Source: a virus
Lineage: Duplodnaviria > Caudoviricetes
IMG/VR virus record: IMGVR_UViG_3300044739_000092
Coordinates: 1-54,410 of that record
DNA length: 54,410 bases
Reading direction: 5' to 3' (one strand)
This document shows, piece after piece, positions 4,802-54,410 of the stretch. The notes under the pieces were generated by a model. It worked only from the letters and a program-made list of their open reading frames with translations, searched no databases and was not told the DNA's origin. How positions within the stretch are numbered: the stretch's first letter is position 1; every line of letters starts with the position of its first letter. The position numbers and the translations under genes were made by a program.

Positions 4802-5148
4802 ACGCCTTCCAGCCCGGCGACAAGGTGCTCGTGGAGGCCGAGCTCGTGACGGCCGGCAGCGACCGGGCCGTCGTGCGCTTCTGGGTAGGCGACGCCAGCC
4901 CCACCAGGATCAGCGTCCCCCTCGCCACCGTCCACCCCGCGCCTGAGCCGCTGTACGTGGACCCGGAGTTGGTGCCCGGAATGGTCGTCGCGCCGCTCGA
5001 CGCGAACGACGACCGCGAGTGGTGGGTGGCGGCAGCCCCCTACGTCGGCGCGGACTGCTGGTTCATCGAGCGCTCCGGTTCCTGCGTCCGGCGTACCGGG
5101 CTTCCCGACGAGATCCGCGTCGTGCGCCCCCGCGAGGCGACGTCGTGA
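4798..5148 (+). CDS. Hypothetical protein
   Basis: Coupled ORF. Confidence 0.6.
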   Translation: MNAFQPGDKVLVEAELVTAGSDRAVVRFWVGDASPTRISVPLATVHPAPEPLYVDPELVPGMVVAPLDANDDREWWVAAAPYVGADCWFIERSGSCVRRTGLPDEIRVVRPREATS

Positions 5149-19354: not shown

Positions 19355-19480
19355 GGGGCACCACCCCCTCCCCCACCACGCCGGAACACCGTGAGGTGCT
19401 GCGGCTAGGGCTGGTTCCGGGTCTGGGACTTTTCGCACCCCTGCCCGACATGGGCTCTTTCCCGACACGGGAGGCACGTC
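19355..19480. other. Candidate cos/packaging region
   Basis: Non-coding gap between HNH and terS, the usual cos position in HNH-terS-terL phages; positional inference only. Confidence 0.4.
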
Positions 19481-19954
19481 ATGGCTGGTCATGGGCCTGC
19501 TCCGAAGGATCCCAGTAGGCGTGTACGGAAGGGCTCTGATCCTGTTCCGCTGCGGGTGATCTCCGCGGAGCCTGTCGCTCAGCCCGCGTTGCCGACGTTC
19601 GAGGTCGAGGTCGACGGGGAGCTGAACGAGTTCCGGTGGCCGCCGCGCACTGTCGAGTGGTGGCAGATGTGGGCGGACTCTCCGCTGTCGGCGGAGTTCA
19701 CGTCGACGGATTGGTCGGAGCTGCTGGACACCGCTCTCCTGCATGCGCGGTTCTGGTCGGGGCAGCTGTCGTTGGCGTCGGAGTTGCGGCTGCGGGTGGC
19801 GAAGTTCGGTGCGACTCCGGAGGACCGGGCTCGGTTGCGGATCACGTTCGCGCAGGCGGATGAGGCTGAGGACAAGCGGCCGAAGTCGCCGTCGTCTAGG
19901 GCGCGCCGCGGTGGGCTGCAGGGTCTTCCGGGGGCCGAGTCTCAGGGCGCGTGA
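19481..19954 (+). CDS. terS: Terminase small subunit
   Basis: MAGHGPAPK...WWQMW..SP...TDW..L.DTA...ELRLRVAKFGATPEDRARLR. Confidence 0.88.
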   Translation: MAGHGPAPKDPSRRVRKGSDPVPLRVISAEPVAQPALPTFEVEVDGELNEFRWPPRTVEWWQMWADSPLSAEFTSTDWSELLDTALLHARFWSGQLSLASELRLRVAKFGATPEDRARLRITFAQADEAEDKRPKSPSSRARRGGLQGLPGAESQGA

Positions 19955-30157: not shown

Positions 30158-31912
30158 ATGGCCCTCCTCGGCGCTGTCCTGCCCGGTGCGGCTGTGCCGG
30201 GGGCTGGCACGGTCGGTGCCACTTTGACCGGCGCGGCGGCATTGTCCGGTGCCGGGGCCCTGACGGCCGGCGGGACGCTCGCGCTGCCGGGTGCGGTCAC
30301 GATGTCCGGTGCCGGCGCGGTCACGGCGGGCGGCACCCTGGGCGTGGCTGCTGCGGTCACGATGTCCGGTGCTGCCGCGCTGGCGGCGGATGCGACGGTC
30401 CCGGGGCCGTTCTTCGTGGAGCGGTACGAGGGCGGCACGCAGGGCGCGACGGCGACCACCAGCAACACGGGCTGGTCGTCGTTCTCGTCGGCGTCGCAGC
30501 AGACGTTCGACAACACGCATTCGGTGTCCGGTGGCCTGGCGGTGAAGGTCGCGGTCACGGCGAACACGGCCTACGCGACGAAGACGTTCACCGCCGCGAG
30601 TTTGCAGTCGCAGCGCTTCTACCTGTGGATGGACGCCTTCCCGTCGGCGGCCACACTGCTCGCGCGGCTGCTGTCTGGCACGACGGAGCGCGCGGCGTTG
30701 CGGATGAACGCCGACGGGACGGTCACGGTCCGGAACGCGCTCGTCGCCACCGGCACCGCCACCGGGGCCCTGCCGCTGGGGCAGTGGGTGCGGTTGGAGT
30801 GGAAGGTCGACGGGCCGGGCGGCGTGCAGGAGTTGCGCGCGTTCTGGGGCGCGAACATCGACGGCACCGTCCCGAACACTGCCGCGGGGTCTCCGGTGTT
30901 CACGAACGCGACGTTCGACACGTACCGGCTGGGGTCGCAGACGGCGGCGGACTGGACCGTTTGGTACGACGATGTGGCGCTGTCGGACCTGGCGGCATAC
31001 CCGGCGCCCACCTTGTTCCCCGCGACGGTGGGAATGGCCGCGGCGGGCGCGCTGGGCGCGGCGGCCGGGCAGACCCACGGCGGGGCTGTCGCCATGACAG
31101 CCGGCGGGACACTGTCCACGGGCGGCCTGGTCACCAAGCCGGCCGCGGTCGCCATGTCGGCGGACGGGGCGCTCTCGGCTGCGGCGGTGCGAACGGTCGG
31201 GGCTTCGGTCACGATGACGGCGACGGCCGCGCTGTCCGCGGACGCGGCGGTCACCAAACCGGCCGCTGTCGGCCTGTCGGCTGACGGTTCGATGTCCGTG
31301 TCCGGTATAGCTGTCCGCCCGGCGGCGGTCACGCTGTCGGGGCTGGGCGTGCTGTCGGCTGGCGCGGTGAACACGACCGCGGCCGCGGTGTCACTGTCTG
31401 GGTCCGGCAGCCTGTCGGCCGTGTCCGGCGGGCTCGTGTCCGGCGGGGCGACGTTCACGGCCGGTGGCACGCTCGCCGCCGCGGGAGCCCGCGCGGCGGT
31501 GACGGCTGTCGCCTTGTCGGCGGACGGAACGATGACGGCGGCGGCGCTGCGTGCCGCGGTCTCCGGCGTCACCCTGTCGGCGACCGGTGCGCTCCTGGCG
31601 ACCGCGTTGCGGACCACGTCCGGTTCGGTACCGATGGCCGCAGTGGGAACGCTGACTGTCGGGGCGTTGCTGAACCGGCCGGGCTCGGTGTCGCTGTCGG
31701 CCGACGGGCTGCTGACGGCGTCGGGAACCGGTACCCCGCCGCCGGTGTCCGGCCGAACCCGGATCCGGCGGACGCAAGCCACGGCCACCGTCCGAGACAC
31801 ATCCCCGCGACCGCTGGTCAGCGCCATGTCCGCACGCGGGCCTGTCACCGACACAACGAGCCGGACGCGTGTCTATGTCACCTCGGCCCCGGGAAGGGTG
31901 TCACATGACTGA
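30158..31912 (+). CDS. Ala/Gly/Thr-repeat fibre protein with an internal beta-sandwich (lectin-like) domain
   Basis: More than 12 copies of an ~19-21 aa repeat AAV.(M/L)S(G/A).G.L(S/T)A flanking a domain with GQWVRLEW and WYDDVALSD. Confidence 0.65.
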   Translation: MALLGAVLPGAAVPGAGTVGATLTGAAALSGAGALTAGGTLALPGAVTMSGAGAVTAGGTLGVAAAVTMSGAAALAADATVPGPFFVERYEGGTQGATATTSNTGWSSFSSASQQTFDNTHSVSGGLAVKVAVTANTAYATKTFTAASLQSQRFYLWMDAFPSAATLLARLLSGTTERAALRMNADGTVTVRNALVATGTATGALPLGQWVRLEWKVDGPGGVQELRAFWGANIDGTVPNTAAGSPVFTNATFDTYRLGSQTAADWTVWYDDVALSDLAAYPAPTLFPATVGMAAAGALGAAAGQTHGGAVAMTAGGTLSTGGLVTKPAAVAMSADGALSAAAVRTVGASVTMTATAALSADAAVTKPAAVGLSADGSMSVSGIAVRPAAVTLSGLGVLSAGAVNTTAAAVSLSGSGSLSAVSGGLVSGGATFTAGGTLAAAGARAAVTAVALSADGTMTAAALRAAVSGVTLSATGALLATALRTTSGSVPMAAVGTLTVGALLNRPGSVSLSADGLLTASGTGTPPPVSGRTRIRRTQATATVRDTSPRPLVSAMSARGPVTDTTSRTRVYVTSAPGRVSHD

Positions 31913-41937: not shown

Positions 41938-42405
41938 GTGACGGCCCATTCGCCGATGCGGCCGGTGGTCATCAACTCCGGGCGCAACGAGTTCGAGGTC
42001 GCGTCGATGGCCGTGTTCGTGATCATCGGGCTGGTCTATCTGACCCGGTCGGCGCCGACACCGAACAGTGTGGACGAACTGCTGTCGCCTTGGTTCGTGG
42101 CCTTGTGGAAGCTGATGTTGGCGTGGGGTGCCGCGGTCAGCTTGGTGGGGATCGTGATGCCGCAGGACAGCATCGTGCGGATCATCCGCGCCCAGACGGT
42201 GGAGCGTACGGGAATGCTGCTGATCGCCGCGGCGGCGTTGGCGTATGCGGTGGCGTTGAGCGCGATCGGTCTGGGCGCGGGGGCGGTGGCGGCGATTGGC
42301 TACGCGAGTGCGTACGGCCTCGCCGGGGTGGTACGCGCGGTGAGGATCACCTACGACCTGGGGCGGATACGTATGGCGGTTGACGACCGGCATTGTGACC
42401 CGTGA
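41938..42405 (+). CDS. Four-TM membrane protein of the lysis region
   Basis: Four hydrophobic segments; start codon uncertain. Confidence 0.65.
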   Translation: MTAHSPMRPVVINSGRNEFEVASMAVFVIIGLVYLTRSAPTPNSVDELLSPWFVALWKLMLAWGAAVSLVGIVMPQDSIVRIIRAQTVERTGMLLIAAAALAYAVALSAIGLGAGAVAAIGYASAYGLAGVVRAVRITYDLGRIRMAVDDRHCDP

Positions 42406-42818
42406 GCGCCGCGGGGGGGCTTGTGGCGCAGGTCGTGCTGGCCATCGGGGCGCTGCTCGGCGGGGGCGGCTTGTGGGGGCTGTACTCGGCTGTCCAGGTG
42501 AAACGGAAGTTGGCCGCGGAGGGTGTCAAAACTGAGGCCGAGGGTGCGCAGGTCATCACGTCCACAGCGCTGACTCTCCTGGCGCCGTTGCGTGCCGAAG
42601 TTGAGGAGGCACGCAAGGAGGCGACGGAGGCACGTCGGGAGGCCACGGATGCGCGGCGGGAGTTGGACGACGTGAACCGCAAGGCCCGCGCCCTGGTGAA
42701 GGCCTTGGACGAGTCCCACGACCGGGAGCGCCAGTACCAGCAGGAGAACACCGAACTGCGGGCGACGAACGCGCGGCTCGAGGACGAGCTGACCCGCCGA
42801 CGTGAACGCCACAACTGA
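42402..42818 (+). CDS. TM plus coiled-coil lysis-region protein
   Basis: N-terminal TM (LLGGGGL), long heptad tail. Confidence 0.7.
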   Translation: MSAAGGLVAQVVLAIGALLGGGGLWGLYSAVQVKRKLAAEGVKTEAEGAQVITSTALTLLAPLRAEVEEARKEATEARREATDARRELDDVNRKARALVKALDESHDRERQYQQENTELRATNARLEDELTRRRERHN

Positions 42819-42827
42819 GGAGATCGG

Positions 42828-43625
42828 ATGGTCTACGGGACGATGCGGAAGGTCACCTCCGAGGGAGTGACCGGAACGTTGTGTCAGCCTGTCGCCGACG
42901 TGCTGGCGCAGCTGGCCGCGAATGGTGGCCGGAACGTTGGGACGATCGGCAACGCGACGCACCTGTGGAACAACGGAGCTCCGCGGACGGCGGCGAATCG
43001 GCGCCACGGCGACCACACCCCGTGGTCAGCCGATGGGCCTGCCGGGTTCGTGATGGCTGTGGATGTGAAGTCTCTGCCGGGGGTGACGCCGGTGGATCTG
43101 TGGCACCGGTTTGTGACGCCGTGCGTGAAGGCGGGCCTGTACCCGGAGTTCAAGTACGGGATCTCGGACTATGTGCTGCGGGATTCCCGGCCGCCGTTCA
43201 ACATGCGGGACCAGAAGGGCGGCGACGGGCCGGGGTGGCTGCATCTGTCGTTCCGGCCGTCGCATGTCCGCGCGCATTCGACGCTCATCGCTGACGCGGT
43301 GGCGTGGCACAAGGCCGGGCGGCCTAGCCCGGTGACGTTCGTGAAGCGCCTGCGCACCCCCCCGAAGCCGCCCCCGAAGGAGCCCACTGTGGCGCAGCCG
43401 AAGTACGACACGTTCAAGGACTGGTATGGCGACTGGTTCGGTCCGGTTCAGTCCCTCATCCACTGGTGGACGAAGACCCGCCCGGTCGAGCAGGCAGCGA
43501 ACACCGGCCGGGATCAGAAGCTCGCCGATCTGCGTGATGACGTGGATGCCGTGTCCACGAACCTCGAATCCCTCGAAGCGCGGGTCGCCGCGCTCGAACC
43601 CCAGAATGGAGCACCCAAGTCATGA
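42828..43625 (+). CDS. Endolysin, Zn-peptidase (M15-like) with Pro linker and C-terminal domain
   Basis: GTIGN..H...GDH.P...V.AVD...WLHLSF; located just upstream of the holin. Confidence 0.7.
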   Translation: MVYGTMRKVTSEGVTGTLCQPVADVLAQLAANGGRNVGTIGNATHLWNNGAPRTAANRRHGDHTPWSADGPAGFVMAVDVKSLPGVTPVDLWHRFVTPCVKAGLYPEFKYGISDYVLRDSRPPFNMRDQKGGDGPGWLHLSFRPSHVRAHSTLIADAVAWHKAGRPSPVTFVKRLRTPPKPPPKEPTVAQPKYDTFKDWYGDWFGPVQSLIHWWTKTRPVEQAANTGRDQKLADLRDDVDAVSTNLESLEARVAALEPQNGAPKS

Positions 43626-43873
43626 GTGGACACGCGAGCCGTGCGCTTCCCACCGGCCCGGTCGAGCTGAAGGTCAAGGTCGCCGCGTGGGCGACCTACC
43701 TCGGTGGCGTCGGCCTGCTGGCGATCCTCAACGCGTTCTCGGACGCGAACCTGATCGCTGGTCTGCCGGACGCGATCGAGGTGTTCGTCGCGCCGATGCT
43801 GCCGACTGCGATCACGACCGCCGCAGCGTGGCTGGCGAAGCACACCCCGCGGCCGGACCTCGGCCAGCAGTGA
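43622..43873 (+). CDS. Holin
   Basis: VE.KV..A...two TMs...AW.AKHTPR, actinophage holin pattern. Confidence 0.8.
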   Translation: MSGHASRALPTGPVELKVKVAAWATYLGGVGLLAILNAFSDANLIAGLPDAIEVFVAPMLPTAITTAAAWLAKHTPRPDLGQQ

Positions 43874-44298
43874 CCGCCGTCGTCCGCTCGGATGTTCCGG
43901 CTGATGATCCGGTTCGGGAGCCGTGGTGTCTGCCGGCGAAGTTGGTGGACGGTCTGCTGTTCCGGGCTTGTGTGATCCGGTTCGAGGATCATGCGGATGG
44001 GCCGTATGTTCACGCCGATTCGTCGCACCGCAACTACGGTGTGGGGAAGGTTCAGGTGCTGGACTCGGGCCGCATCGAGATTTACGCGGCGGGCCCGGTG
44101 GGTGCGATCGCCTCGGTGCACCTGAACGTCGATGAGTCGTTCGCGAAGGACGGGTACTCGGTGGGCGCGTCGGGTGGCGCCGGCCTGACGGTGGCGGTGT
44201 TCGGTCACCGGTCGGGTACCTCGGTGACTGGCATGAACACTGGCTTGTATGCGCCGGGGCGGAACATCTGGTGTTCGTGGTGGGGACTGCCCGCCTGA
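43870..44298 (+). CDS. Hypothetical beta-rich protein
   Basis: GTGA-coupled to the holin; ends before the terminator. Confidence 0.6.
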   Translation: MTAVVRSDVPADDPVREPWCLPAKLVDGLLFRACVIRFEDHADGPYVHADSSHRNYGVGKVQVLDSGRIEIYAAGPVGAIASVHLNVDESFAKDGYSVGASGGAGLTVAVFGHRSGTSVTGMNTGLYAPGRNIWCSWWGLPA

Positions 44299-44312
44299 CC
44301 TGCTGTACGACT

Positions 44313-44356
44313 GCGGCCCCTCTCTTGTCCTTCGGGACGGGAGAGGGGCCGCTTTT
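44313..44356 (+). terminator. Intrinsic terminator of the late operon
   Basis: GCGGCCCCTCTCTTGTCC-TTCG-GGACGGGAGAGGGGCCGC-TTTT. Confidence 0.9.
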
Positions 44357-44364
44357 CGTCGTGC

Positions 44365-44781
44365 CTAGGGTCGCCAGGTCTCGTCGTAGTCCTCGTGGTC
44401 GGCGTACGGCAGGGCGAGGAGGCGCAGGGTCGGGCACCAGCCGCTCTCGATGAGTCCGTAGTCGCGGTCCTCGTGGCACGTCCAGCACCCCGCCTCGTCG
44501 CCGCTCAGTTCGTGCTCGTGCTCCTCCACGATCCGCCGCTTCGCCTCGACGTCCCGCAGCGCTCGGGAGCGCTGGTGGATGGTTTCGGCGTGTTCCTCGG
44601 CGGAGCTAGTTATCGCCTCAACGGTGCCGCCGTAGACCGGTGATGGGTCGCAGTAGCGACACTGCGACCCCACCCAGCCCGCCGGGGCGCAGCATCCTGG
44701 CTCGCACGCGTATGGACTCAAGGTCCAGGTCGGCGCCTCGTCCCGGTCGAGCCGCGCGGTCAGGAACTCCACCAGCGTCAT
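44365..44781 (-). CDS. DUF6221 family protein
   Basis: LVEFLTARLD.DE...LRDVEAKRRIV...TLRLLALPYADH.DY.E.WRP. Confidence 0.85.
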   Translation of the reverse strand: MTLVEFLTARLDRDEAPTWTLSPYACEPGCCAPAGWVGSQCRYCDPSPVYGGTVEAITSSAEEHAETIHQRSRALRDVEAKRRIVEEHEHELSGDEAGCWTCHEDRDYGLIESGWCPTLRLLALPYADHEDYDETWRP

Positions 44782-44783
44782 GA

Positions 44784-45098
44784 CTAGGCCACAGCAGCAG
44801 CGCGGGCGAGGCGGCTGGCGTGGTTGTAAGCGAGCCGAGCGGCGAGGTTCCGCTCCCGCTTCGGGTCAGTCGACGGCGGGATGCCGGGACGGGCGGCGTC
44901 GATGGCCGTCGCGATGCGCTCGCGCTCCTTCTCGGCTCCTCGCTGTTCGGCTGCCGCCTCACGGGCGGCCACGAATGGGGCCAGCGCGTCGAGCACGTCG
45001 AGCACGTCGTCGCCCGAGTCCGCAGCGTTCCACGCCGCCCCTTCCTCCTCGTCTGTCCACTGCCAGGTGGTTGCCTGCTCGTCCGGCGTCTCGCTCAC
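44784..45098 (-). CDS. Hypothetical protein
   Basis: Coupled to the RHH gene. Confidence 0.6.
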   Translation of the reverse strand: MSETPDEQATTWQWTDEEEGAAWNAADSGDDVLDVLDALAPFVAAREAAAEQRGAEKERERIATAIDAARPGIPPSTDPKRERNLAARLAYNHASRLARAAAVA

Positions 45099-45373
45099 GG
45101 TTCGACCTTCCTGAGTGTCACGACTGTCTCCCCGAGGGTGCCGTGGATCGGACCTTCCTCGACCACGTACAGGCCGTCGTCGCCGTGCCTGAGCTTCACG
45201 AGGTCCACCGTGTCCCCAGGTGCCAGGACCGGGGCCGCCGCATACCGTTGCAACGACTCACGCACCACACTGCTCACCGTCTCACCGTGCCTCTCCGCCT
45301 TCGCGGCAGCGGCATCCCACGTGTCATCGGGGATGCGGATGTTGTGGTTCGGCGTGTGTGAAGGGTTCGGCAC
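45095..45373 (-). CDS. Ribbon-helix-helix regulator
   Basis: HNIRIPDDTWDAAAAKA...GETVSSVVRESLQRY. Confidence 0.8.
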   Translation of the reverse strand: MPNPSHTPNHNIRIPDDTWDAAAAKAERHGETVSSVVRESLQRYAAAPVLAPGDTVDLVKLRHGDDGLYVVEEGPIHGTLGETVVTLRKVEP

Positions 45374-45418
45374 GCCGACATCCTCTCAGCCGACCGGCTT
45401 CCATGCCACGACCATACA

Positions 45419-45488
45419 GCGTGTACCTACACGATCAAGCATGGCACGCTCGAAAACCTGGCGCGTGTACCCACACGACGTGTACCGT
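45419..45488. promoter_or_regulatory. Operator repeats and promoter of the transfer operon
   Basis: GCGTGTACCTACACG (45419-45433), GCGTGTACCCACACG (45463-45477), half-site CGTGTACC (45479); TACCGT -10 seven nt before the ATG at 45496. Confidence 0.7.
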
Positions 45489-45495
45489 CACCGCC

Positions 45496-46221
45496 ATGAC
45501 ACAACAGTCATCAGGAGCCGTACCGGCGGTGCCGCCAACGCAGACCACCGTCGGCACGGCCCTGCCAACAGGCCGAGGCTGGGCCTACACCGGCGCCATC
45601 CTCGGCATCACCGTCTCCGTCACCGCCAACATCGCCCACGCCCGCATCCCCACCCACCCCCACACCGGTGCCGTCGCATTCGCCGCCCTCTGGCCCCTGT
45701 TCCTGTTCGTCACCATCGAAATCATGGCCCGCACCCCGTGGCCCCACCTCCACCGCTGGAAGTGGGTCCGCTTCGGCGGACTCACCATCGTCGGCGTCGT
45801 CGCAGCGATCGTGTCGTACCGGCACCAGGCCGGGCTCCTCGCCTTCTACGGCGAAGACAGACTCACCACGATCATCGGACCCTTGGCGGTGGACGGGCTA
45901 CTGCTGACAGCGACAGGCGCGCTGATCGCCACGTCACGGACACGACAGTCCACGCCAGCACCCGCCACGACCGCCACGGCTGTCACCCCCACGCCGGCGC
46001 CTGTCCGGGTCGCCCAGGACAAGGCCGCCACAGCCCCGCCACCTGTCACCACGCCCCGGCCGCCCCTGTCACCCCCCGACCAGTCCCGCGCCTACGTCGC
46101 GTCCCACCCCGACATGACACGCGACCAGCAGGCCGCCGCGCTCGGCATCTCCCCCCGCACACTCGCCCGCCACCTCGCACAGCCCACGAAGCTCACCGCC
46201 GTCAACGGAGGCACATCGTGA
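45496..46221 (+). CDS. DUF2637/Spd-like membrane protein with C-terminal HTH
   Basis: SV.ANIAHA, WP..L...E, VAAIVSY.H, PLAVDGL; four TMs; C-terminal QAAALGISPRTLARHL. Confidence 0.78.
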   Translation: MTQQSSGAVPAVPPTQTTVGTALPTGRGWAYTGAILGITVSVTANIAHARIPTHPHTGAVAFAALWPLFLFVTIEIMARTPWPHLHRWKWVRFGGLTIVGVVAAIVSYRHQAGLLAFYGEDRLTTIIGPLAVDGLLLTATGALIATSRTRQSTPAPATTATAVTPTPAPVRVAQDKAATAPPPVTTPRPPLSPPDQSRAYVASHPDMTRDQQAAALGISPRTLARHLAQPTKLTAVNGGTS

Positions 46222-46415
46222 CCCCGACCCGCAGAGTCCTGATCTTCACTGGGGAGTGGGCGGCGATCCTCGCCTTCTGCCTTCTCCTCCTGGCGCTCTT
46301 CCTCAAGTCGGTGCCCGCCGTCTTCTGGGCACTGGGGCTGGTCGGTGTCACCATCGTCACGTCGCTGGTCGAGGAGTTCCTCCGGGGCGACGAGGAAGAG
46401 GAGGCGGCCCGATGA
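46218..46415 (+). CDS. Small two-TM protein (Spd-like)
   Basis: Hydrophobic; coupled. Confidence 0.6.
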   Translation: MTPTRRVLIFTGEWAAILAFCLLLLALFLKSVPAVFWALGLVGVTIVTSLVEEFLRGDEEEEAAR

Positions 46416-46621
46416 TCACCGAGGCCCTCGCGATCCTGGTCCTCCTCGCTGCTGGCCTGTGGTTCGGCTACCGCGGTCGCAGCTTCTTCGCCCCGATCTG
46501 CTACATCCTGATCGGCGTCATCCTCGCGGGCGGCACGTTCACCGGGGCAGCGAGTCACGGCGGCCACATCGTCACGACCGTGGCGACCCAGCTCGCCAGC
46601 TACGTCGGGGGGAAGGCGTGA
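46412..46621 (+). CDS. Small hydrophobic protein (Spd-like)
   Basis: Two TMs; coupled. Confidence 0.65.
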   Translation: MITEALAILVLLAAGLWFGYRGRSFFAPICYILIGVILAGGTFTGAASHGGHIVTTVATQLASYVGGKA

Positions 46622-48255
46622 CCGCGCCCACCGAACCCCCCGCCCCGGCGCCCGAGGTGTCGAGGCCCCGCCCTACCGTGTCCCGGACGCCCCGCCCGTC
46701 GCGTACCAAGCGGCGGGCCATCGCCGTGCCTGTGCTCCTTGCCGGCGGTCTGCTCGCGTTGGTTGCGTCGCAGGGCGGTTGGCTGCTGCTCCTCGCGGCG
46801 GCGGGTGGTACGGCTGCGGTGGGCGGCGGCCTGTGGGTGTCGGCTCGGCGACGTGCCGGGATGCGGTCGGGTCGTGGTTCTCGTCGGCAGCAGCGGTTCC
46901 GGCGTCCTCAGCGGGCGCCGCGCCAGTTCGGCGGGTTCGCTCCCCGCCGCCCGGCCGCCGCGGGGATCCGTCACGTCGGCGGCAACGCCGGGCGCGGCAT
47001 GGGCCGGGCAGCTGGTCGCGCGGCGGGTGGTGTCGGTGCGGTCGGCCGTCGCGCTGCTGGTGCGGGCCGGGGCGCCGCGTCGCGCGTCGATGCGTCGGCT
47101 CGACGCGGCAAGCAGGCGGCCGGTTCGGTTGCGGCGTCTGGCCGGAAGAAGGCGCAGTCCGCGCTGCGGATCCCGGGCCGGTCGAGCACCGGGCGCCCCG
47201 CGAAGCCCGCGAGCTCGGCAGCTGGTCATCGGCCGTCGTTCGCCAGGGGCCGGAAGTCGGCCACGCCGCGCGCTACGGGCGCGGCGAGCAAGACCGGACG
47301 CTCGGGCCGCGGCGGCGGGTTCCGGATTCCCGGCATGTCGAGCGGCCGGACCGGTGGCCGCACTGGTGGCAGGGCAGGTGGCGGCCGGATGTTCGGCGGC
47401 AAGGCGACACCCCGCCGCGCCCCCGGCATGTCGGCCGGGCGTCTCGGCAACGCGGCGCGACGGCTCACCGGACGGACACGACCCGCCGCCGGTGCCACCC
47501 CAGGCGCCGGCACGGCACGGGCACCCGGGCAGCGCGTCCGTGGTGTTCGGGGTGTCCTCGGCCGGACACGCGGTCGGCTGACCGGACGCCCCGCGCCGAC
47601 ACGGACACGGACACGACGCAAGGTGACACCCGGCAAGACGACCCAGGCACCGACGCTGACACGGCGCGCCGCCCGCCGAGCCATGACAGCCACCCGGGCA
47701 GGTGCCCTGCGGACCGGACGCGGCACCCGATCACTCGCCCGACGCATAGCCCGCCGCCTGTGGAACGCCCCCGCCGCCGCTGTCACCGCACTCACCGGAC
47801 CCGCCTACCCCCGAACCCCGGCCGCCACCCTCGGCACCCCACCTGTCACCACCCCGGCCGCCACTGCCAGGCCGACACCGCAACTCGCCACCGCTGGAGG
47901 ACCCGCCATGTCCCACCCCGCCATCGACCCATCCGTCGAAGCCGCGAACAGCCTCGGCGGCTACGAATTCCGCCACATGAGCGACATCCGGAACTTCACC
48001 TCCGCCGCCCCCGAATCCATCGCCGCCCTCGCCGCCGCCTACGCCGCCGTCGCCAACCGGCTCGCCGACACCCCCGCCGCATCCGGTGTCGCCGAGGTGT
48101 ACTCCCAGATCGCCGGCAGCCTCTCCGCCTCCGCCGACACCGCCGGGGAAGCCTCCGGGCTCCTTGCCGCCGCGAACCAGGACGACTTCCAGCGCATCGA
48201 CAACCCCCGCCCCAACGAGGGCATGGCCGACTACGGCCCCAACGCCGCAGGCTGA
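46618..48255 (+). CDS. Arg/Gly-rich membrane protein with a TraA-like C-terminal domain
   Basis: Two N-terminal TMs, long basic low-complexity region, helical C-domain ending RIDNPRPNE..AD...N; directly upstream of traB. Confidence 0.65.
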   Translation: MTAPTEPPAPAPEVSRPRPTVSRTPRPSRTKRRAIAVPVLLAGGLLALVASQGGWLLLLAAAGGTAAVGGGLWVSARRRAGMRSGRGSRRQQRFRRPQRAPRQFGGFAPRRPAAAGIRHVGGNAGRGMGRAAGRAAGGVGAVGRRAAGAGRGAASRVDASARRGKQAAGSVAASGRKKAQSALRIPGRSSTGRPAKPASSAAGHRPSFARGRKSATPRATGAASKTGRSGRGGGFRIPGMSSGRTGGRTGGRAGGGRMFGGKATPRRAPGMSAGRLGNAARRLTGRTRPAAGATPGAGTARAPGQRVRGVRGVLGRTRGRLTGRPAPTRTRTRRKVTPGKTTQAPTLTRRAARRAMTATRAGALRTGRGTRSLARRIARRLWNAPAAAVTALTGPAYPRTPAATLGTPPVTTPAATARPTPQLATAGGPAMSHPAIDPSVEAANSLGGYEFRHMSDIRNFTSAAPESIAALAAAYAAVANRLADTPAASGVAEVYSQIAGSLSASADTAGEASGLLAAANQDDFQRIDNPRPNEGMADYGPNAAG

Positions 48256-48270
48256 GGAAGGACAACAACC

Positions 48271-50403
48271 GTGCGCGAGTCCGAACGGCAGCGGATCGTC
48301 GCCGAGGAGACCGCCGACGAATGGCCCTACGAGGCCTGGTCGAACCCCGTCAGCGCGATGCTCGGCACGTACCTCCTCGGCGTCCTGCTGCACATGGCGG
48401 ACGTGTCACCGTGGTGGCCGCTGCTGACCGGGCTCGCTGTCACCGTCACGTGGGTCGGCTGCACCGTGTCACTCGGCACCAAGGACCTTGGTGTCGGGTA
48501 CGCGGCGGCAGTGTCCCTGTCGGTGACAGGGTGGCTGACATGGGCCGCCGGACACCCGACACTCGACATCCGGAACTGGCCTGTCACCCGCGACTCGTGG
48601 TGGATCCTCGCCACCGCCACCGCCATCCTCGCCGTCGTGTGGGGTGTCCTCATCCGGCAACGCGCGAACGCTGTCGCTGACGTGGCCGACCGTCTCCGCG
48701 GTGTCACCGGACAGGGCGACAGTTGGGAAGACGCCTGCCGGCAGGCCGGGATCGCCGGCTGGGAGTACGAGTCGCAGGAGACGACACCCGGCGGCATGAA
48801 GGTGACGATGCGGATCCGCCCGGGTGGCACCACGTACCGGCAGGCCCTCGGCTCGGTGGAACGGTTGGAGTCGTGCGTCGAGGCCCCGTACCACGGCGCG
48901 GTGCGAATCGAGAAGGGCGCGAACGCCGCCCGGGCGGTCATCGTGTGGAACGAGCGGAACATGCTCGCCGAGGTCCTGCCGTACCCGGACGACATGTCGC
49001 CGACGGACATCGTGAAGCCGATGACGACCGGCATGTTCGAGGACCGCATCCCGGCGACCGTCACTTACGCGTACCGGTCGAGCCTCACCCTGGGGCAGCG
49101 GGACGGCGGCAAGAGCAACGAGAACGCGGTGAAGATCGCGAACCTCGTCCGCGCCCCCAACGTCCTCATCTGGCTGTCGTGTTTCAAGCAGGGCTCGGCC
49201 GCGAAGCCGTGGCTGGCCCCGTACGCCGCCGGGCAGGCCGCCGCGCCCGCCCTCGACTGGGTGACCGTGTGCACCCCCGCCGACATGGCTGGTGTTGAAG
49301 CGCAACTCGACGCGCTCGACCGGATCGGGAACGAACGCGCCCGACGGCGCACCAGCGACAAGATCGTGCCCACCCCGGAGCAGCCCGCGATCCGCCTCAA
49401 CATCGACGAAATCGCCGACCTGCTGGCCGACCCGCGGAACTACCGCATCGCCGCGAAACTCGTCCTCGTCCTGCGTAAGCACAGGTCAGAGGGCATCGAC
49501 CTTGATCTTGCTTCCCAGCGGGGCACCATGTCGTTCCTCGGACAGTGGGCCCGCGACATCGCCTCCCAGGTCAGCATCGTCAACGTGTTCAAGGTCGACA
49601 ACCCCGCCGAGGTGTGGAACGCCCTCGGCTTGGACCGGTCCCGGATCGGCGGCATCGACCCGTCCACATTCGAGTACCAGGGCACGATGCTCACCGTGGC
49701 GCCCGGCGCCCGGATCGCGCCGCAGAAGGTGTTCCGCATCAACCACGACGACCCCCTCGCCGTCCCCAAGCTGGCGGCTGCCGGCGCCGCGCACCGGCCC
49801 CAGCTCGAGCAGTCGGCTGTGGCGGCGGCGGGGCCGCAGTACGCGCGCCGTTGGCAGACCGACCAGGTCCGGGCCCTGCTGGTGGATGCGGCGCGGATCG
49901 TCGGCGGCCAGTATCAGCCCGCGCACGTTCCCGCCGTCGGCCACGCGACCGTCCCCGCCTCGGTCCCCGTGCAGGTGGCGGGTCCGCCGCGGTTGCGTGC
50001 CGTGCCGTACCTCGACCCCACCAGCAGCGTCCCCGTCGAACGGCAACTCGGCCTCCACAAGATCGACGGCCGGCAGATCCTCGTTGACCAGTTCGGGCCG
50101 GTGGAGGGCGAGAAGGCGTGGCAGTTCGCGCAGGGCTACAACCTGCTCGTCGAGGCCCGCCGGATCCTCGCCGCCACCCCCGACCGGGCGTTGCCGACGC
50201 GGGACCTCCTCGACCAGTTGGCGTTGCGGCCGAAGTGGGACGGGCTCACCCCGGAACGCCTCGCCGAGCTCGTCCGCCCGCACGGCGTGAGGCCTGACCA
50301 GCTGGGGGCGTCGCGGTTCCCGGGGAACCCGCGCGGCTACCGCCTCTCCAGCGTCGAGGAGGCGCTGCGGCAGCCCGCCGAGGACTCCCCGACACCGGCG
50401 TAG
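48271..50403 (+). CDS. traB: TraB-type FtsK/SpoIIIE conjugative DNA translocase
   Basis: Four N-terminal TMs, Walker A GQRDGGKS, Walker B LNIDE, R.EGI..LASQR, C-terminal wHTH-like LAELVRPHGV...NPRGY. Confidence 0.85.
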   Translation: MRESERQRIVAEETADEWPYEAWSNPVSAMLGTYLLGVLLHMADVSPWWPLLTGLAVTVTWVGCTVSLGTKDLGVGYAAAVSLSVTGWLTWAAGHPTLDIRNWPVTRDSWWILATATAILAVVWGVLIRQRANAVADVADRLRGVTGQGDSWEDACRQAGIAGWEYESQETTPGGMKVTMRIRPGGTTYRQALGSVERLESCVEAPYHGAVRIEKGANAARAVIVWNERNMLAEVLPYPDDMSPTDIVKPMTTGMFEDRIPATVTYAYRSSLTLGQRDGGKSNENAVKIANLVRAPNVLIWLSCFKQGSAAKPWLAPYAAGQAAAPALDWVTVCTPADMAGVEAQLDALDRIGNERARRRTSDKIVPTPEQPAIRLNIDEIADLLADPRNYRIAAKLVLVLRKHRSEGIDLDLASQRGTMSFLGQWARDIASQVSIVNVFKVDNPAEVWNALGLDRSRIGGIDPSTFEYQGTMLTVAPGARIAPQKVFRINHDDPLAVPKLAAAGAAHRPQLEQSAVAAAGPQYARRWQTDQVRALLVDAARIVGGQYQPAHVPAVGHATVPASVPVQVAGPPRLRAVPYLDPTSSVPVERQLGLHKIDGRQILVDQFGPVEGEKAWQFAQGYNLLVEARRILAATPDRALPTRDLLDQLALRPKWDGLTPERLAELVRPHGVRPDQLGASRFPGNPRGYRLSSVEEALRQPAEDSPTPA

Positions 50404-50490
50404 CACCCGCTATAGCGGGCCCGTAGCGCCCCACCCGGGGGCCCGCTACGGGGCGTCCCGCTACGGCCCCCGCTACTGGCCCGCTACACC
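50398..50490. repeat. clt-like locus of 8-bp CCCGCTAC repeats
   Basis: Perfect copies at 50442, 50457, 50469 and 50480; palindrome CCCGCTATAGCGGG at 50406-50419; inverted GTAGCG at 50423. Confidence 0.8.
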
Positions 50491-50546
50491 CGGCTTGGCC
50501 TGCGAGGTAGCACCCACATGACCGCATCGGAGAAGGGGGGCCAACC

Positions 50547-51149
50547 GTGGCTCGGAGACGTCGTTCCAGACGGCGCCGCAGTGACGCGAGGGTGGTGCTC
50601 GCCCTGGGCGGTCTGATGGCCGTGTACTGGGGTCTGTTGCAGGCGTACCGGTGGGTGCTCGGGCACCGGGTCACAGCGGCCGGGATTGGCGCCGGGGTGG
50701 TGGCCGTCGGCGTGTTCGCGTTGCGGGTGTGGTGGCGTCGTCGTCGCGGCCGGAGGGCGGCGGTGCGGCGTCTGGCCTCGTTGGGTGATGGGACGGGGAA
50801 GGCCGCGGAGGAGCTGGTCGCCGAGTTGCTGCGCCGGGACGGTTGCACCGGCGTGGAGGTGCGCGGCGGGGGTGGTGATCTGGGTGCGGATGTGACGGGG
50901 ATGTTGCCGGGTGGTGGCCGGGTTGTGGTGCAGGTGAAGGACTACGCGAAGCCGATCGGTAGCCCGGCGTTGCAGACGTTCAATGGGACGTGTTGGGCGG
51001 AGCATGGGGCGGATGTGGCGGTGTTCGTGACGACGTCCAGCTTCACCAGTGCCGCGGTGGCGTTCGCTGGCCGGTCGGGTATCGAGTTGGTGGATGGGGC
51101 TGGGTTGGCGGCGTGGATGGGCGGGGAGTCGATGGGCTCGGCGGCGTGA
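50547..51149 (+). CDS. Membrane-anchored Mrr-like restriction endonuclease
   Basis: Two TMs, then E..VA.LL, GGGGDLGADV, VVQVKDY, FVTTS.FT..A, LVDG. Confidence 0.85.
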   Translation: MARRRRSRRRRSDARVVLALGGLMAVYWGLLQAYRWVLGHRVTAAGIGAGVVAVGVFALRVWWRRRRGRRAAVRRLASLGDGTGKAAEELVAELLRRDGCTGVEVRGGGGDLGADVTGMLPGGGRVVVQVKDYAKPIGSPALQTFNGTCWAEHGADVAVFVTTSSFTSAAVAFAGRSGIELVDGAGLAAWMGGESMGSAA

Positions 51150-51153
51150 AGAC

Positions 51154-51203
51154 GTTAATTCCGGTTGACGGGGCGAGGCCCGATACGGTAAAGTCGAGTT
51201 GAC
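51154..51203 (+). promoter_or_regulatory. SigA/HrdB-type promoter with repeated operator-like boxes
   Basis: TTGACG(51165)-18-TAAAGT(51189); GTTAATTCCGGTTGAC and GTAAAGTCGAGTTGAC imperfect palindromes. Confidence 0.65.
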
Positions 51204-51233
51204 AGAAAGAGCCGAACGAGAGGACATCTCCCC

Positions 51234-51590
51234 ATGACCACCCGCTACGACCTCGATCCGGTCACCACCGACCCTCCGATGGCCTACACCACCACCGCTG
51301 GCGTCAAGATCGCCGACCTCGGCGAAGACGGCGCGTACCTGGCGATCGGACACCTCACCGCCGAGGGGATGGTGGCCGCCGTCATCGACATGCAGAACTA
51401 CCAGGGGACGAGACCCGACGAGGAGTTCAGCGACGCCGAGATGGCCGAGCTCGTCGTTCGCACCCGCGTCGTGTTCCACAACCCCCAGGAAACCGACGCC
51501 GAGGCCGACTACAACTGGTGGATCGAGACCGGCCCGGATGTCGAGGCCAGCCCGAACGCCCTCGACGTGACCATCTGGGACCCGTCATGA
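51234..51590 (+). CDS. Acidic hypothetical protein
   Basis: GAGGA RBS; first gene after the promoter. Confidence 0.7.
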   Translation: MTTRYDLDPVTTDPPMAYTTTAGVKIADLGEDGAYLAIGHLTAEGMVAAVIDMQNYQGTRPDEEFSDAEMAELVVRTRVVFHNPQETDAEADYNWWIETGPDVEASPNALDVTIWDPS

Positions 51591-51853
51591 CCACCGGCCG
51601 CGGCGCCCGCGTGTTCTCCGACGGCAAGGAGTGGACCCCGTGACCCCGACGACGCCGGGCGCTCCGACGACCACCGACCGGCGCGGGGAATGCCGGGAGT
51701 GCGGTCGCGTGATGACGCTCAAGGTGGACGGCACCCTCCGCCAGCACCGGAGTGACATCTGGGTCAACGGGCACCCGCTCCGCTGCTGCGCTGGTTCCGG
51801 TGCCCTCCCGGCCCCCGCCGGTGGCACGCGCGCCGCCGACCGCGACACCGCCG

Positions 51854-52054
51854 ATGGCTGATCCGCTGGCCGCGGTGAAAGCCGCCACCGACGCCCGCAC
51901 CCGAGGCATCCAACGCCTCGACACCCGCTGGCACACCGCGATCCGCGCCGCCGTCGACGGTGGACAGTCGCAGGCCGCCGTCGCCCGGGCAGCCGGCGTC
52001 ACACGAGCCCGGATCAACCAAATCATGCGCAACCGCGAGGAGGAACAGGGATGA
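51854..52054 (+). CDS. Small HTH protein
   Basis: IRAAVDGGQSQAAVARAAGVTRARINQI. Confidence 0.75.
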   Translation: MADPLAAVKAATDARTRGIQRLDTRWHTAIRAAVDGGQSQAAVARAAGVTRARINQIMRNREEEQG

Positions 52055-52344
52055 GCGCAGCGAGAACAGTCCACCGGCACAAGCTCGACCACGGCATCAA
52101 CAGGCTCCGCGTCCCCATGGGGTGGAGGTTCCTCAGCACGGCGGTGAGACCGCTCGAAGCGGAGCCGTCTGTTTGGCTGGAAGTTCCCGGAGGCTCTGGC
52201 GTCCCGATGGAGACCCTGGTCCTGGAATTCATCGGGACCGGGCACATCGTACCGGGCAACGCGGCCGAGTTCCTAGGCACCGCGATCGTCCCTATCGCAT
52301 CTCCCCTGGTGTGGCACGTGTACCGCATCGAGGAGGACCGATGA
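52051..52344 (+). CDS. Hypothetical phage protein
   Basis: GTGH.......FLGT......VWHVY pattern. Confidence 0.7.
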   Translation: MSAARTVHRHKLDHGINRLRVPMGWRFLSTAVRPLEAEPSVWLEVPGGSGVPMETLVLEFIGTGHIVPGNAAEFLGTAIVPIASPLVWHVYRIEEDR

Positions 52345-52853
52345 GCGGGCAAGCCTGGCCGACCCGCGAGGAGGTCGCGCAGGTGCTCGACTTCGACGAC
52401 TTCCCGAGCGGCGTGGCCCTGGAACTGATCGCGGCTCAGGTGGCGGCGCGGGAGAAGGCGGCAGCCGAGAAGGCATGCGAGACCGCGCGGGGCGAGGTCG
52501 AACGTCTGCGCGCCAGGCTTGCCCAGGCGACGGTGTTCACCCTGCTGCCGGACACCTCCCCGTACCCACCGCACCAGGACATCCACACCTGGGGCATCCG
52601 TGTGGAGCAGCGCGGCCCCGATTCGTGGGCCGTGGTTGAAAGGTCCTGGTGTCTCGACCGGGACGGCCACCGCGAGTACGAGTCGACGCCATCCGAGCGA
52701 ACAGACGACTTCAAGGCCAGATTCCGGTTCACCCTCGATGACGCATTCGACATCGCCGAGCGGGCACTGCCTAACATCCGGATCAACGGCGCGACAGCAG
52801 TCGAGGCAGCCGCGTGGGTTGCCGCCAGACAGGCCAGGGACCCGCGCGCATAA
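52341..52853 (+). CDS. Hypothetical phage protein
   Basis: VE.RG.D.WAV......CL..DG..EYE..PS.R.DDF.AR.RF. Confidence 0.7.
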   Translation: MSGQAWPTREEVAQVLDFDDFPSGVALELIAAQVAAREKAAAEKACETARGEVERLRARLAQATVFTLLPDTSPYPPHQDIHTWGIRVEQRGPDSWAVVERSWCLDRDGHREYESTPSERTDDFKARFRFTLDDAFDIAERALPNIRINGATAVEAAAWVAARQARDPRA

Positions 52854-52912
52854 CGCCCGCCTCAGGTGCTGCCGGTGATCGCTTACGAGAACTTGGCTTC
52901 CGGGTATCAGTG

Positions 52913-52941
52913 GAGTCACATAAGATAGGATTATGTGGACC
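52913..52941. other. lox/dif-like recombination site
   Basis: CACATAA-GATAGGA-TTATGTG inverted repeat with asymmetric 7-bp spacer, AT-rich, just upstream of the tyrosine recombinase start. Confidence 0.7.
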
Positions 52942-52953
52942 TAGGGGGACTCC

Positions 52954-53982
52954 GTGGAAGACCTGGACGCTGAACTGCTCCCCGCGGTACCCGACGCACC
53001 CCCAGGAAACATCGTCCACGCGGGGGAAATCGAGCGGGCCAACCGCTACCTCAAGCGCGCCAAGTCCGACGCCACCCACGGCGCCTACGCCCAGGACTGG
53101 GCCCGGTGGACAGAGTGGTGCGCCGAAACCGGCCGCGACCCAGGCGTCCCCGCGGACCCGTTCGCGGTCGTCGCCTACGTCACCGCTCTCGCCGACGCAG
53201 GCTCCCCGCCCTCCACGATCCTGCGCCGACTGTCCGGACTCGGATACGAACACCGTCGCCGCGGCCACGACTCCCCCGCCCGGCACCCCGCCGTGTCCGA
53301 GGTCATGTCCGGAATCCGCAACGTCGCCGCCGACGGCGGCCACCGCACCCGCCAGGCCGCCCCCCTCGACACCGCCACCGTGCGACTGCTCGTAGAGGAC
53401 ATGCCCACCGGACTGGCCGGCGCCAGAGACCGGGCCATGCTCCTCCTCGGCTACGGACTCGGACTCCGGTCACGGGAGATCGTCCGCCTCAGCGTCCGAG
53501 ACATCACCGACATCGGAGCCGGGGGCGTCGAAGTCTTCATCGCGCAGTCGAAGACCGACCAGGGAGGCGCCGGAGTCACGCTGGCCCTCCCCCGGTCACC
53601 GCGGGAATCCACCTGCCCAGCCCGCGCAGTCCTCGCGTGGATCGAGGCCGCCCAGCTCACCGACGGGCCGCTGTTCCGCAACATCGACCGACACGGCAAC
53701 CTCGTCCCGCCCGGACTGGACAGCCGCGGACGTCACCGCGGCGACCGGATGGCCCGAGAGTCGGTCGGCCGGATCATCCACCGCGCCTGCCTGAACGCCG
53801 GGATCCTGTCCGGAGGATTCTCCGCTCACTCGCTGCGGCGCGGCTTCGCGACCACGGCGTACCGCATCGGCAAGGACGAGAAGGAGATCAGCCGCACCGG
53901 CAGATGGCGCCACCTGCCCACCCAGCGCCGATACGACGCGAGCAGCCGGTGGGAGAAACCAGCTGGCGGACTGGACCTGTAG
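52954..53982 (+). CDS. Cre-like tyrosine recombinase/resolvase
   Basis: SAM-like N-domain (T..AY..DW..W..WC), RDRAMLLLG...LRSRE, SKTDQ, HSLRRG, GRW, RY. Confidence 0.92.
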   Translation: MEDLDAELLPAVPDAPPGNIVHAGEIERANRYLKRAKSDATHGAYAQDWARWTEWCAETGRDPGVPADPFAVVAYVTALADAGSPPSTILRRLSGLGYEHRRRGHDSPARHPAVSEVMSGIRNVAADGGHRTRQAAPLDTATVRLLVEDMPTGLAGARDRAMLLLGYGLGLRSREIVRLSVRDITDIGAGGVEVFIAQSKTDQGGAGVTLALPRSPRESTCPARAVLAWIEAAQLTDGPLFRNIDRHGNLVPPGLDSRGRHRGDRMARESVGRIIHRACLNAGILSGGFSAHSLRRGFATTAYRIGKDEKEISRTGRWRHLPTQRRYDASSRWEKPAGGLDL

Positions 53983-54410
53983 TGAGCGACCTGGACCCGG
54001 ACGTACCCGCGTGCTGGTCGTGGCCCATCCACCCGGAGGACCGAGCGAGCGTCGCGAAGAACGGCACCGAAGGGCTCCGGCGGTGGCACACGTGGACGTG
54101 CGGGCTGTGCGGGAAGGCGAGTCTTCCGCTACGGGGTATCCGGACCGACGAGCTGGTGCTCGACCACGATCACGACACCGGACTCGCCCGGGGCTACCTG
54201 TGCCGGTCCTGCAACCGGCGAGAGACGTACGGGCGCGGCGCATTCGACCTGTGGCGTAGCTGTCCGTCCGCGGCGCTGTTCGGGCTGATCTTCGAGTACG
54301 ACCTGCCGCAGTTACAGGCGTCCGACTACGACGTGGCGGCGACGGTCGGGTCGTGGACCCAGTTCCCGCGCCGGCCGTCCCCGTGGGAACGGTTGCGGGA
54401 GGTGGGTTAG
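53982..54410 (+). CDS. Endonuclease VII domain protein
   Basis: CGLCG...LVLDHDHDTGLARGYLCRSCN. Confidence 0.85.
   Translation: MSDLDPDVPACWSWPIHPEDRASVAKNGTEGLRRWHTWTCGLCGKASLPLRGIRTDELVLDHDHDTGLARGYLCRSCNRRETYGRGAFDLWRSCPSAALFGLIFEYDLPQLQASDYDVAATVGSWTQFPRRPSPWERLREVG

Follow-up and report, generated by a model that had tools for sequence, protein, structure and literature searches.

The window analysed here is the whole of IMG/VR provirus record IMGVR_UViG_3300044739_000092, a stretch of 54,410 bp with about 70% G+C that carries a temperate tailed phage genome. At positions 50400–50511, at the very end of a gene coding for a TraB-like DNA translocase (48271–50403, + strand), it harbours an array of short opposed repeats, which we interpret, with a probability of roughly 0.7, as the putative cis-acting docking site, of the clt type, of the adjacent translocase. 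Together with an Arg/Gly-rich membrane protein encoded directly upstream, TraB and the array form a predicted transfer module of the type found in the integrative and conjugative elements of actinomycetes (AICEs), here located inside a phage genome. In known clt regions, the cognate TraB recognises 8-bp units repeated in direct orientation (PMC4447253), but such sites have so far been scarcely described for AICEs of several actinomycete families, and none had been reported for the AICE pSAM2 (PMC9513070). The less ordinary features of the present case are the ground plan of the array, which is kept across AICE families, the apparent pairing of a TraB wing residue with one base of the repeat core, and the location in a phage genome. 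No report of a tailed prophage carrying both TraB and clt was found within the limited collection of literature searched.

Anatomy of the repeat array

The array spans 112 bp and comprises nine GCTA cores in the order < >< < > > > > (box) <, with > for direct and < for inverted copies. It opens with the inverted copy GTAGCAC (50400–50406, − strand), which includes the traB stop codon TAG (50401–50403), and continues with a perfect 14-bp palindrome, CCCGCTATAGCGGG (50406–50419), made of one direct and one inverted half-copy. Next in order comes CCCGTAGCG; a further inverted copy, GTAGC (50423–50427, − strand), lies inside CCCGTAGCGCC. Four perfect direct copies of CCCGCTAC follow within 50442–50487 on the + strand (50442–50449, 50457–50464, 50469–50476 and 50480–50487), with start-to-start spacings of 15, 12 and 11 bp. 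Between them and the last inverted copy, GTAGC (50507–50511, − strand; inside GTAGCACCCACA), stands a CCTGCGA box (50499–50505, + strand), which is kept across elements with unlike repeat motifs.

The first-pass annotation of this DNA had recorded four perfect direct copies, a palindrome and inverted partial copies from the traB stop onwards, all of which are borne out by these coordinates and by the chance checks below. It had also placed the end of the array at 50490, after about 90 bp, and had described the repeats as octamers. The last inverted copy lies 17 bp beyond that end, and the octamer holds for the four direct copies only; what all nine copies have in common is a core of 4–5 bp.

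The array is real and non-random, as confirmed by several checks. The octamer CCCGCTAC occurs seven times in the window, against 1.51 occurrences expected from 100 shuffles, and four of the seven fall inside 46 bp. One 130-bp span holds seven GCTAC/GTAGC motifs; the runner-up span in the window holds three, which is also the maximum across 200 first-order Markov simulations. None of 200 Markov simulations produced any 8-mer present four times without overlap within 50 bp. GCTA/TAGC occurs at 33.3 per kb over the first 270 bp past the traB stop, versus 1.3 per kb elsewhere in the window. Contigs from four soil sequencing runs cover the stretch, the X2 pieces being identical to it, and the X3 and X4 pieces across the array about 5% different. 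An extra copy of CCCGCTAC at 51241 corresponds to codons 3–5 of the next open reading frame (ORF); the related locus L008 (see below) has no copy there, and the N-terminus of its product is unrelated. This copy is treated as due to chance, as are the single copies at 7678 and 29624.

Arrays at homologous traB loci

Nine loci with close homologues of the TraB-like protein were compared, namely, L008 (IMG/VR), L009 (a metagenome-assembled genome of Actinocatenispora), L010, L011, L012 and L014 (Glycomyces), L013 (Stackebrandtia), L015 (a metagenome contig) and L029, the homologues being 34% to 61% identical across their N-terminal and motor region. A further seven loci carry distant homologues (L023–L028 and L033). 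The 16 loci are not independent, as L011/L012/L014, L023/L024, L026/L027 and L025/L028 are close pairs or trios. With regard to the search for loci, a metagenome scan gave one locus, and searches of genomes at the level of order and family (151, 401, 201 and 401 genomes) contributed no more than G371 and G485.

An array is present at, or a few bases from, the traB stop in 15 of the 16 loci, that is, in eight of the nine close loci (L008, L010–L015 and L029) and in all seven distant ones. The first-pass annotation had named a lack of repeats beside homologous traB genes as the observation that would speak against its assignment of a clt-like array to traB; the repeats were found to be conserved there, and this assignment gains support from these loci, from the covariation with the TraB wing and from an anatomy like that of the plasmid pWTY27, both described below. 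In the window, L008, L010, L013 and L029, the stop codon lies inside the first copy. The same eight close loci follow one ground plan, in which three or four copies in one orientation are followed by two to five in the opposite one, a spacer, and one or two copies in the first orientation again. The spacer carries a box of the CCTGCG type in L008, L010 (as GCTGCG), L011 and L015. Core density in the arrays of the close loci ranges from 30 to 41 per kb, versus 0.4 to 2.4 per kb in the remainder of each locus.

The seven distant loci all possess opposed arrays with quite different motifs at the traB stop, again with a CCTGCG box. Over the 16 arrays (the window and 15 loci), at least seven motifs can be distinguished: GCTAC, GTTAC, GCTAT, GTGGAC/GTCCAC, GTCTC/GAGAC, CGTCCGC/GCGGACG and TGCTCCC/GGGAGCA. 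By eye, CCTGCG is found near a GTA in the window, L008, L011, L015 and L033, with GCTGCG taking its place in L010 and GCGCCTGCGCG(CG)TA in L023–L028. The box, of the form CCTGCG(A/C)nGTA, is therefore common to arrays with otherwise unrelated repeats, and it does not resemble a −10/−35 pair. When IMG/VR was scanned with a pattern combining the box and the last copy, only the record of L008 and L039, an unrelated low-GC phage, were retrieved.

The gene that comes after the array varies: it codes for an Mrr-like nuclease in the window and L008, for small Cys-rich ORFs followed by a DUF3987 helicase in L010, and for an excisionase-like protein, as judged by eye, in L023. Since the array stays at the traB stop while the downstream gene changes, it follows traB and not the neighbour.

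In L009–L015 and L029, a CCCAAAAACAGG-like box is located about 150–190 bp past the traB stop, after a hairpin-like GC-rich stretch; it is present neither in the window nor in L008. In eight AICE relatives, L009 not being among them, one or two further repeat copies lie beyond this box, just before the ribosome-binding site of the next gene.

The TraB-like translocase

The traB-like gene, with a G+C content of 0.91 at third codon positions (GC3), codes for a predicted FtsK-type translocase of double-stranded DNA (dsDNA) of 710 residues. Its product matches PHROG 31069 (FtsK/SpoIIIE-like, E 3.4e-18). In tblastn searches, it shares 25% to 29% identity with genes annotated as 'DNA translocase FtsK' or as hypothetical on plasmids of Streptomyces and other actinomycetes (E down to 5e-18), and among 50,697 phage records it finds only six distant matches (five from Streptomyces phages and one from a Saccharomonospora phage), all FtsK-like genes with 24% to 27% identity. 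With E up to 0.001 as the limit, a profile search returned 1,395 representative proteins; of the 150 listed, most are 600–750 residues long. Among ten distant homologues scanned, two pass the cut-off of Pfam FtsK_SpoIIIE, and a third falls just below it.

The Walker A motif GQRDGGKS (residues 275–282; 49093–49116, + strand) has G280 and K281 invariant in 14 and in 74 aligned homologues, and the Walker B region RLNIDE (residues 375–380; 49393–49410, + strand) has D379 and E380 invariant in the 14-sequence family alignment; GQRDGGKS and IDE are kept in fourteen close homologues. A sequence search of the PDB with the protein gives nothing at E up to 1. An AlphaFold2 model based on 74 sequences reaches a predicted local distance difference test (pLDDT) score of 89.4; Foldseek matches it best to FtsK motor domains (2iut, 2ius and 6t8b, E about 1e-12) and to the TcpA coupling protein. 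Long hydrophobic helices lie at residues 26–42, 48–67, 72–94 and 103–145, as read from the model and the sequence.

At the other end, the model predicts a winged helix (50176–50370, + strand), with secondary structure elements in the order helix, strand 640–642, helix 643–650, helix 661–671, and strands 675–676 and 688–691. Helix 661–671 is the predicted recognition helix, and the wing contains Pro687 (50329–50331). Modelled alone, the last 115 residues give a pLDDT of 89.8 and the topology helix-strand-helix-helix-hairpin. Among the matches that VIA-align lists for this C-terminal domain, the best are winged-helix domains (Z 5–6.6), and Foldseek proposes a forkhead fold with a probability of about 0.9 (E about 0.1). 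These structure scores support the fold class only, and the reading of DNA by the domain is inferred. Since it joins N-terminal helices of hydrophobic character to an FtsK motor fold with Walker A and B and ends in a winged helix, the protein has the three-part build of actinomycete TraB; the naming of the upstream gene as traB in the first-pass annotation was thus well founded.

The only Pfam match of the protein is a weak one to the C-terminal part of DUF3631, over residues 621–699. In L009, the DUF3631 protein encoded after Prim-Pol (L009:9323-10465) has a C-terminus homologous to the TraB winged helix (36% identity over 55 residues, E 6e-5). In AICE-type elements, related sites may be read by both the pump and the replication protein.

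Covariation of the array with the TraB wing

The closest comparison is offered by L008, in which the array has an identical order of orientations and all nine cores are changed by the same single base, from GCTA to GTTA. The traB stop and the first copy change together (TAG to TAA, and GTAGCAC to GTAACAC), the palindrome CCCGCTATAGCGGG is aligned to CCCGTTATAACG, and the last copy GTAGCACCCACA reads GTAACACCCACA. Nine parallel changes point to one reader, the specificity of which differs between the two elements. For the same pair of loci, identity is 60% in TraB, 88% in the Mrr-like protein and 99.4% in the tyrosine integrase. Arm-type sites (attP) of the tyrosine integrase were accordingly rejected as an explanation, the integrase being nearly unchanged despite nine changed cores out of nine, and the array lying 2.5 kb from its gene.

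The same comparison bears on the possibility that the inverted copies act as a DNA or RNA hairpin, as in a terminator, a processing site or a single-strand origin, so that the structure would matter and not sites for a protein. Inverted GTAGC and GCTAC copies are able to pair, the change from GCTA to GTTA is compensatory for such pairing, and the array is located at a gene end. Yet the single-strand fold, at −33.5 kcal/mol, is no better than shuffled sequences, which average −30.4 kcal/mol (z −1.13; 27 of the 200 do equally well), no terminator-like site is present in 50200–51400, and the array has no Rfam match at E up to 1. Moreover, the spacers differ between elements and are not complementary by eye, and the four to five copies on one strand outnumber their possible partners. 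A hairpin function is therefore most improbable.

Across the close loci, the base that distinguishes the cores goes with one residue of the TraB wing. The wing sequence NPRGY or NPKGY accompanies GCTA cores in the window, L011, L012, L013 and L014, while NARGY accompanies GTTA cores in L008, L010 and L015; L029 combines NQRGY with GCTA. A maximum-likelihood tree restricted to the N-terminal and motor part groups L008 with the window and places L010 and L015 in the Glycomyces clade. The GTTA carriers thus belong to two separate clades, which implies at least two switches of specificity. Position 687 in the wing is probably responsible for reading the second base in G(C/T)TA.

Several observations weigh against TraB as the reader of the array or against the array as its site. 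The wing codon is only about 70 bp away from the array, so that both may travel as one block and their co-distribution would be expected from linkage alone. The covariation amounts to two or three switches over ten loci, of which several (L011/L012/L014) are closely related. The predicted recognition helix (661–671) is identical in the window and L008 despite their unlike motifs, and in pSVH1 TraB it is helix alpha-3 that has been reported as the specificity determinant (PMC3583192). The winged-helix structure matches are generic and weak, and FtsK-gamma is not among the matches listed. No Pfam or NCBIfam family is found above its cut-off for the whole protein, and Pfam FtsK_SpoIIIE gives no match to it. 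With regard to the repeats, L009 lacks a comparable array and has only three CACCCGG and two CACCCG in about 150 bp, in a single orientation. A cruder control, based on the best strand-merged 6-mer cluster in 150 bp, ranks the array zone top or joint top in only eight of 17 loci, repetitive upstream coding DNA being denser elsewhere. In the window, this control gives the array no more than a shared first place (n = 6), with an equal cluster at 31843.

Two further points on this side belong to a different explanation, in which the repeats would serve some other protein than TraB as iterons or operators, at a replication origin or a regulatory site of the downstream genes, and would merely lie beside traB. 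At a putative origin, RepAM of pMEA300 binds a number of identical 8-bp repeats (PMC2440964), and replication-associated DUF3631 proteins have a winged helix homologous to the TraB C-terminus. The array of L010 is located between traB and replication genes, and the copies before the next ribosome-binding site in the eight AICE relatives would also suit this explanation. On the other hand, the arrays remain at the traB stop whatever gene comes next, the motif tracks the TraB wing residue, and tblastn reveals no second protein with a TraB-type winged helix in the window. The only promoter-like site detected, at 51165–51194, is outside the array. Rep-bound iterons following a rep gene were rejected, since the gene next to the array in the window and L008 codes for an Mrr_cat nuclease and not for a replication protein, and arrays follow traB across loci. 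We consider this explanation quite unlikely, and favour a docking site for TraB.

The tying cluster at 31843 consists of six TGTCAC/GTGACA copies around a gene start at about 31906, which come after imperfect coding repeats of about 60 bp at 31200–31740.

Comparison with known transfer systems

The clt of pWTY27 is composed of 16 bp of traA and the adjoining 159 bp; it holds inverted repeats as well as four 7-bp direct repeats, and carries a TraA footprint (PMC3583192). The site in the window likewise starts inside the 3' end of a tra gene and continues into adjoining non-coding DNA, contains four short direct repeats together with inverted ones, and follows a gene for an FtsK-like, putative membrane protein, the membrane protein of pWTY27 having about 690 residues. 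The motifs are not the same, being TGACACC and CCCGCCC in pWTY27 and GCTAC in the window, and no close protein similarity to Tra of the pWTY27 type was found, the best Streptomyces plasmid matches reaching 25% to 29% identity. Furthermore, pWTY27 is a theta-replicating plasmid for which binding and the need for transfer have been demonstrated, whereas the phage of the window is known from its sequence.

The clt loci of pIJ101 and pJV1 consist of direct and inverted repeats (PMC3583192). In pSVH1, pJV1 and pIJ101, a hexameric FtsK-like pump is reported to read element-specific repeats of 5–9 bp with its C-terminal winged helix (Reuther 2006, Vogelmann 2011 and Franco 2003, cited after PMC4447253 and PMC3583192), and dsDNA is transferred. 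The window resembles these systems in its element-specific repeats and in the C-terminal winged helix of its FtsK-like pump. It differs from them, as they are described as having direct repeats, by two opposed sets arranged around a conserved CCTGCG box. It also differs from the pSVH1 type, where helix alpha-3 is the determinant, in that the recognition helix is unchanged between the window and L008 while the wing residue covaries. In addition, the hosts are not Streptomyces, the relatives being Glycomyces, Stackebrandtia and Actinocatenispora.

In FtsK, the gamma domain, a winged helix at the C-terminus of the motor, reads the 8-bp FtsK orienting polar sequences (KOPS), the orientation of which matters. 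A C-terminal winged helix on an FtsK-type motor and an 8-bp motif are thus shared with the window, but KOPS are dispersed and skewed along the chromosome, while the window has one local array with both orientations. The RepAM repeats of pMEA300, multiple identical 8-bp units able to form a hairpin, are situated within rep and serve as binding sites for Rep (PMC2440964), unlike those of the window, which are located at the traB stop with no adjacent rep gene.

Tailed-phage structural genes and plasmid-type transfer or maintenance functions have been reported in one replicon for the Streptomyces plasmid-phages pZL12/PhiZL12, pSLE1 and PhiNon1 (PMC4487206, PMC5431353), and pSLE1 is reported to have two integrase genes, as does the element in the window. 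In these sources, pZL12, pSLE1 and PhiNon1 are described as autonomous plasmids with ParAB, in contrast to a provirus with a serine and a tyrosine integrase. Transfer of pZL12 is said to require a main tra gene along with two genes next to it, with no mention of clt in the excerpts available.

The carrier phage and the neighbourhood of traB

The phage character of the window is evident from genes for a small terminase subunit (TerS, 19409–19954), the large terminase subunit, a portal protein and a 1,239-residue tape measure protein. Past the tail genes, the order is an ORF with a weak DUF2637 match, the Arg/Gly-rich membrane protein gene, traB, the array, the Mrr-like gene, a DUF7352 gene, a tyrosine integrase gene and an endonuclease VII-like ORF.

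The DUF2637 ORF (45220–46221, + strand) gives a match to this family of Spd-like membrane proteins below the cut-off (E 3.6e-4; 20.9 bits for a cut-off of 22.8). Its true start is probably near 45570, as the coding signal is present only from about 45500, and the block 45570–46223 is 82% identical to the related 42.6-kb record G004. A clear DUF2637 gene is present upstream of traB in the AICE locus L010. The next gene (46345–48255, + strand; start uncertain) ends 16 bp before traB and encodes a membrane protein in which a hydrophobic segment precedes a long low-complexity stretch rich in Arg, Gly and Ala. No Pfam family was found for this protein; the codon signal of the gene is clear only from about 47900, and the block is collinear with G004. 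A gene of this kind is located directly before traB in L008 and L009 as well, and in several loci its repeat DNA constitutes denser k-mer clusters than the array. In phage Galactica, a gene annotated as 'membrane protein' directly precedes the FtsK-like gene.

Downstream of the array, the Mrr-like gene (50547–51149, + strand) codes for a restriction-endonuclease-like protein with a hydrophobic N-terminus (Pfam Mrr_cat, E 1e-24). It is not found downstream of traB in the two AICE loci scanned (L009 and L010), and is cargo outside the conserved unit. In L008, CTGTAG/CTACAG copies at 8890–8935, upstream of the ORF after the Mrr-like gene, have no counterpart in the window and possibly represent the operator of another regulator.

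The element has two integrases of different classes. The tyrosine integrase gene (52954–53982, + strand; Pfam Phage_integrase, E 3.3e-13) is located 2.5 kb downstream of the array, and the gene for a large serine recombinase (1219–2679, − strand; Pfam Resolvase and Zn_ribbon_recom) at the opposite end of the record. In G004, which has its own large terminase (35% identical to that of the window), the serine recombinase comes directly after the tyrosine-integrase block: G004 is collinear with positions 17936–54387 of the window and then runs on into 1196–4832. On a circular map, phage DNA therefore lies to either side of the traB module. L008 also runs on into 1226–2652 in an otherwise noisy tblastx comparison. 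The first codon of the window is a GTG and its last a stop, which shows that the record was trimmed at gene borders. Positions 1–1195, which contain a Methyltransf_24 ORF beginning at this GTG, have no counterpart in G004, where the sequence equivalent to 54387 is joined to that equivalent to 1196 via an unrelated 560 bp with a 180-residue ORF. This part may represent the host flank of the integrated form, or variable cargo of a permuted genome.

Identity to G004 amounts to 73% in the traB cassette (46197–51152), compared with 97.7% and 95.5% in the integrase blocks (52881–54387 and 1196–2661), which indicates strong cassette mosaicism. A comparison of 42000–46400 or 1–3000 with 52800–54410 revealed no att-like direct repeat longer than 14 bp that could bound an inserted AICE, and blastn of 47000–54410 against the 50,697 phage records gave no match. 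With the terminase and portal of the window as queries, no match was obtained on the traB contigs of four host genomes searched. As for the relatives, L009 has an AICE-type context (GGDEF, traB, SSB, Prim-Pol, DUF3631, HTH_17 and integrase), as does L010 (GGDEF, DUF2637, traB, DUF3987/DnaB_N, HTH_17 and integrase). The GGDEF diguanylate cyclase gene (L009:289-1035 and L010:547-1209) is located at the same end of these two otherwise diverged AICEs.

This setting leads to another explanation of what the array is for. TraB may bind it in order to move or partition phage DNA within the mycelium (at septa or in spores), or as an aid to replication or packaging; alternatively, the module may be an inert AICE passenger, recently captured. 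FtsK-like genes are present in Streptomyces phages, where the authors of the reports only guess at a role such as replication (PMC11536984; bioRxiv 10.1101/2024.02.16.580700), and TraB has been implicated in intramycelial spreading too (PMC4447253). Neither an AICE-type replication gene nor a clear regulator was found beside traB in the window, and the low identity to G004 at 46.2–51.15 kb, between flanks of 95–98%, fits a swapped-in cassette. Nevertheless, two diverged phage genomes both carry the module in intact form and with an identical architecture of nine copies, which argues for selection over decay. The FtsK-like genes of Hiyaavirus have no intergenic array past their stops and therefore do not represent the same arrangement, and the two close relatives of which the neighbours were scanned (L009 and L010) are located in integrative conjugative elements. 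We regard such a use, or an inert passenger, as unlikely, and retain a docking site for transfer.

Proposed mechanism and significance

The steps proposed here are taken from the characterised Streptomyces system, while the anatomy to which they are applied is observed in the window. The element would be present as dsDNA, most likely as an excised circle. The winged-helix C-termini of membrane-anchored TraB hexamers would bind the repeated GCTAC cores, which would face each other as two oppositely oriented sets, about one helical turn apart, and the FtsK-type motor would then pump dsDNA into the neighbouring cell or hyphal compartment. That the clt of an integrated element might mobilise the chromosome in cis is a published hypothesis (PMC11571958). 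The first-pass annotation had proposed as much for the prophage, and had also taken the module to be functional, a suggestion that rests on the uninterrupted ORF and the well-preserved repeats.

A more far-reaching proposal, which we put forward as tentative, is that a temperate tailed actinophage has acquired a complete AICE-type dsDNA conjugation unit (membrane partner, pump and clt) and may spread both by virions and by conjugation from the lysogen. It would include a recognition code in which Pro at position 687 goes with G-C-TA and Ala with G-T-TA, and a clt ground plan around a CCTGCG box common to AICEs of several actinomycete families.

With a ground plan that can be recognised at the traB stop, clt sites could be annotated in AICEs of other actinomycete genera, and the pairing of a Pro or Ala wing residue with a C or T base bears on how TraB pumps choose their DNA. 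The presence of such a unit inside a phage genome provides a candidate function for some, at least, of the FtsK-like genes that have remained unexplained in actinophages. If this is true, the phage would gain a second route of spread that does without the virion, and it is possible that the prophage spreads without lysis, perhaps dragging host DNA along.

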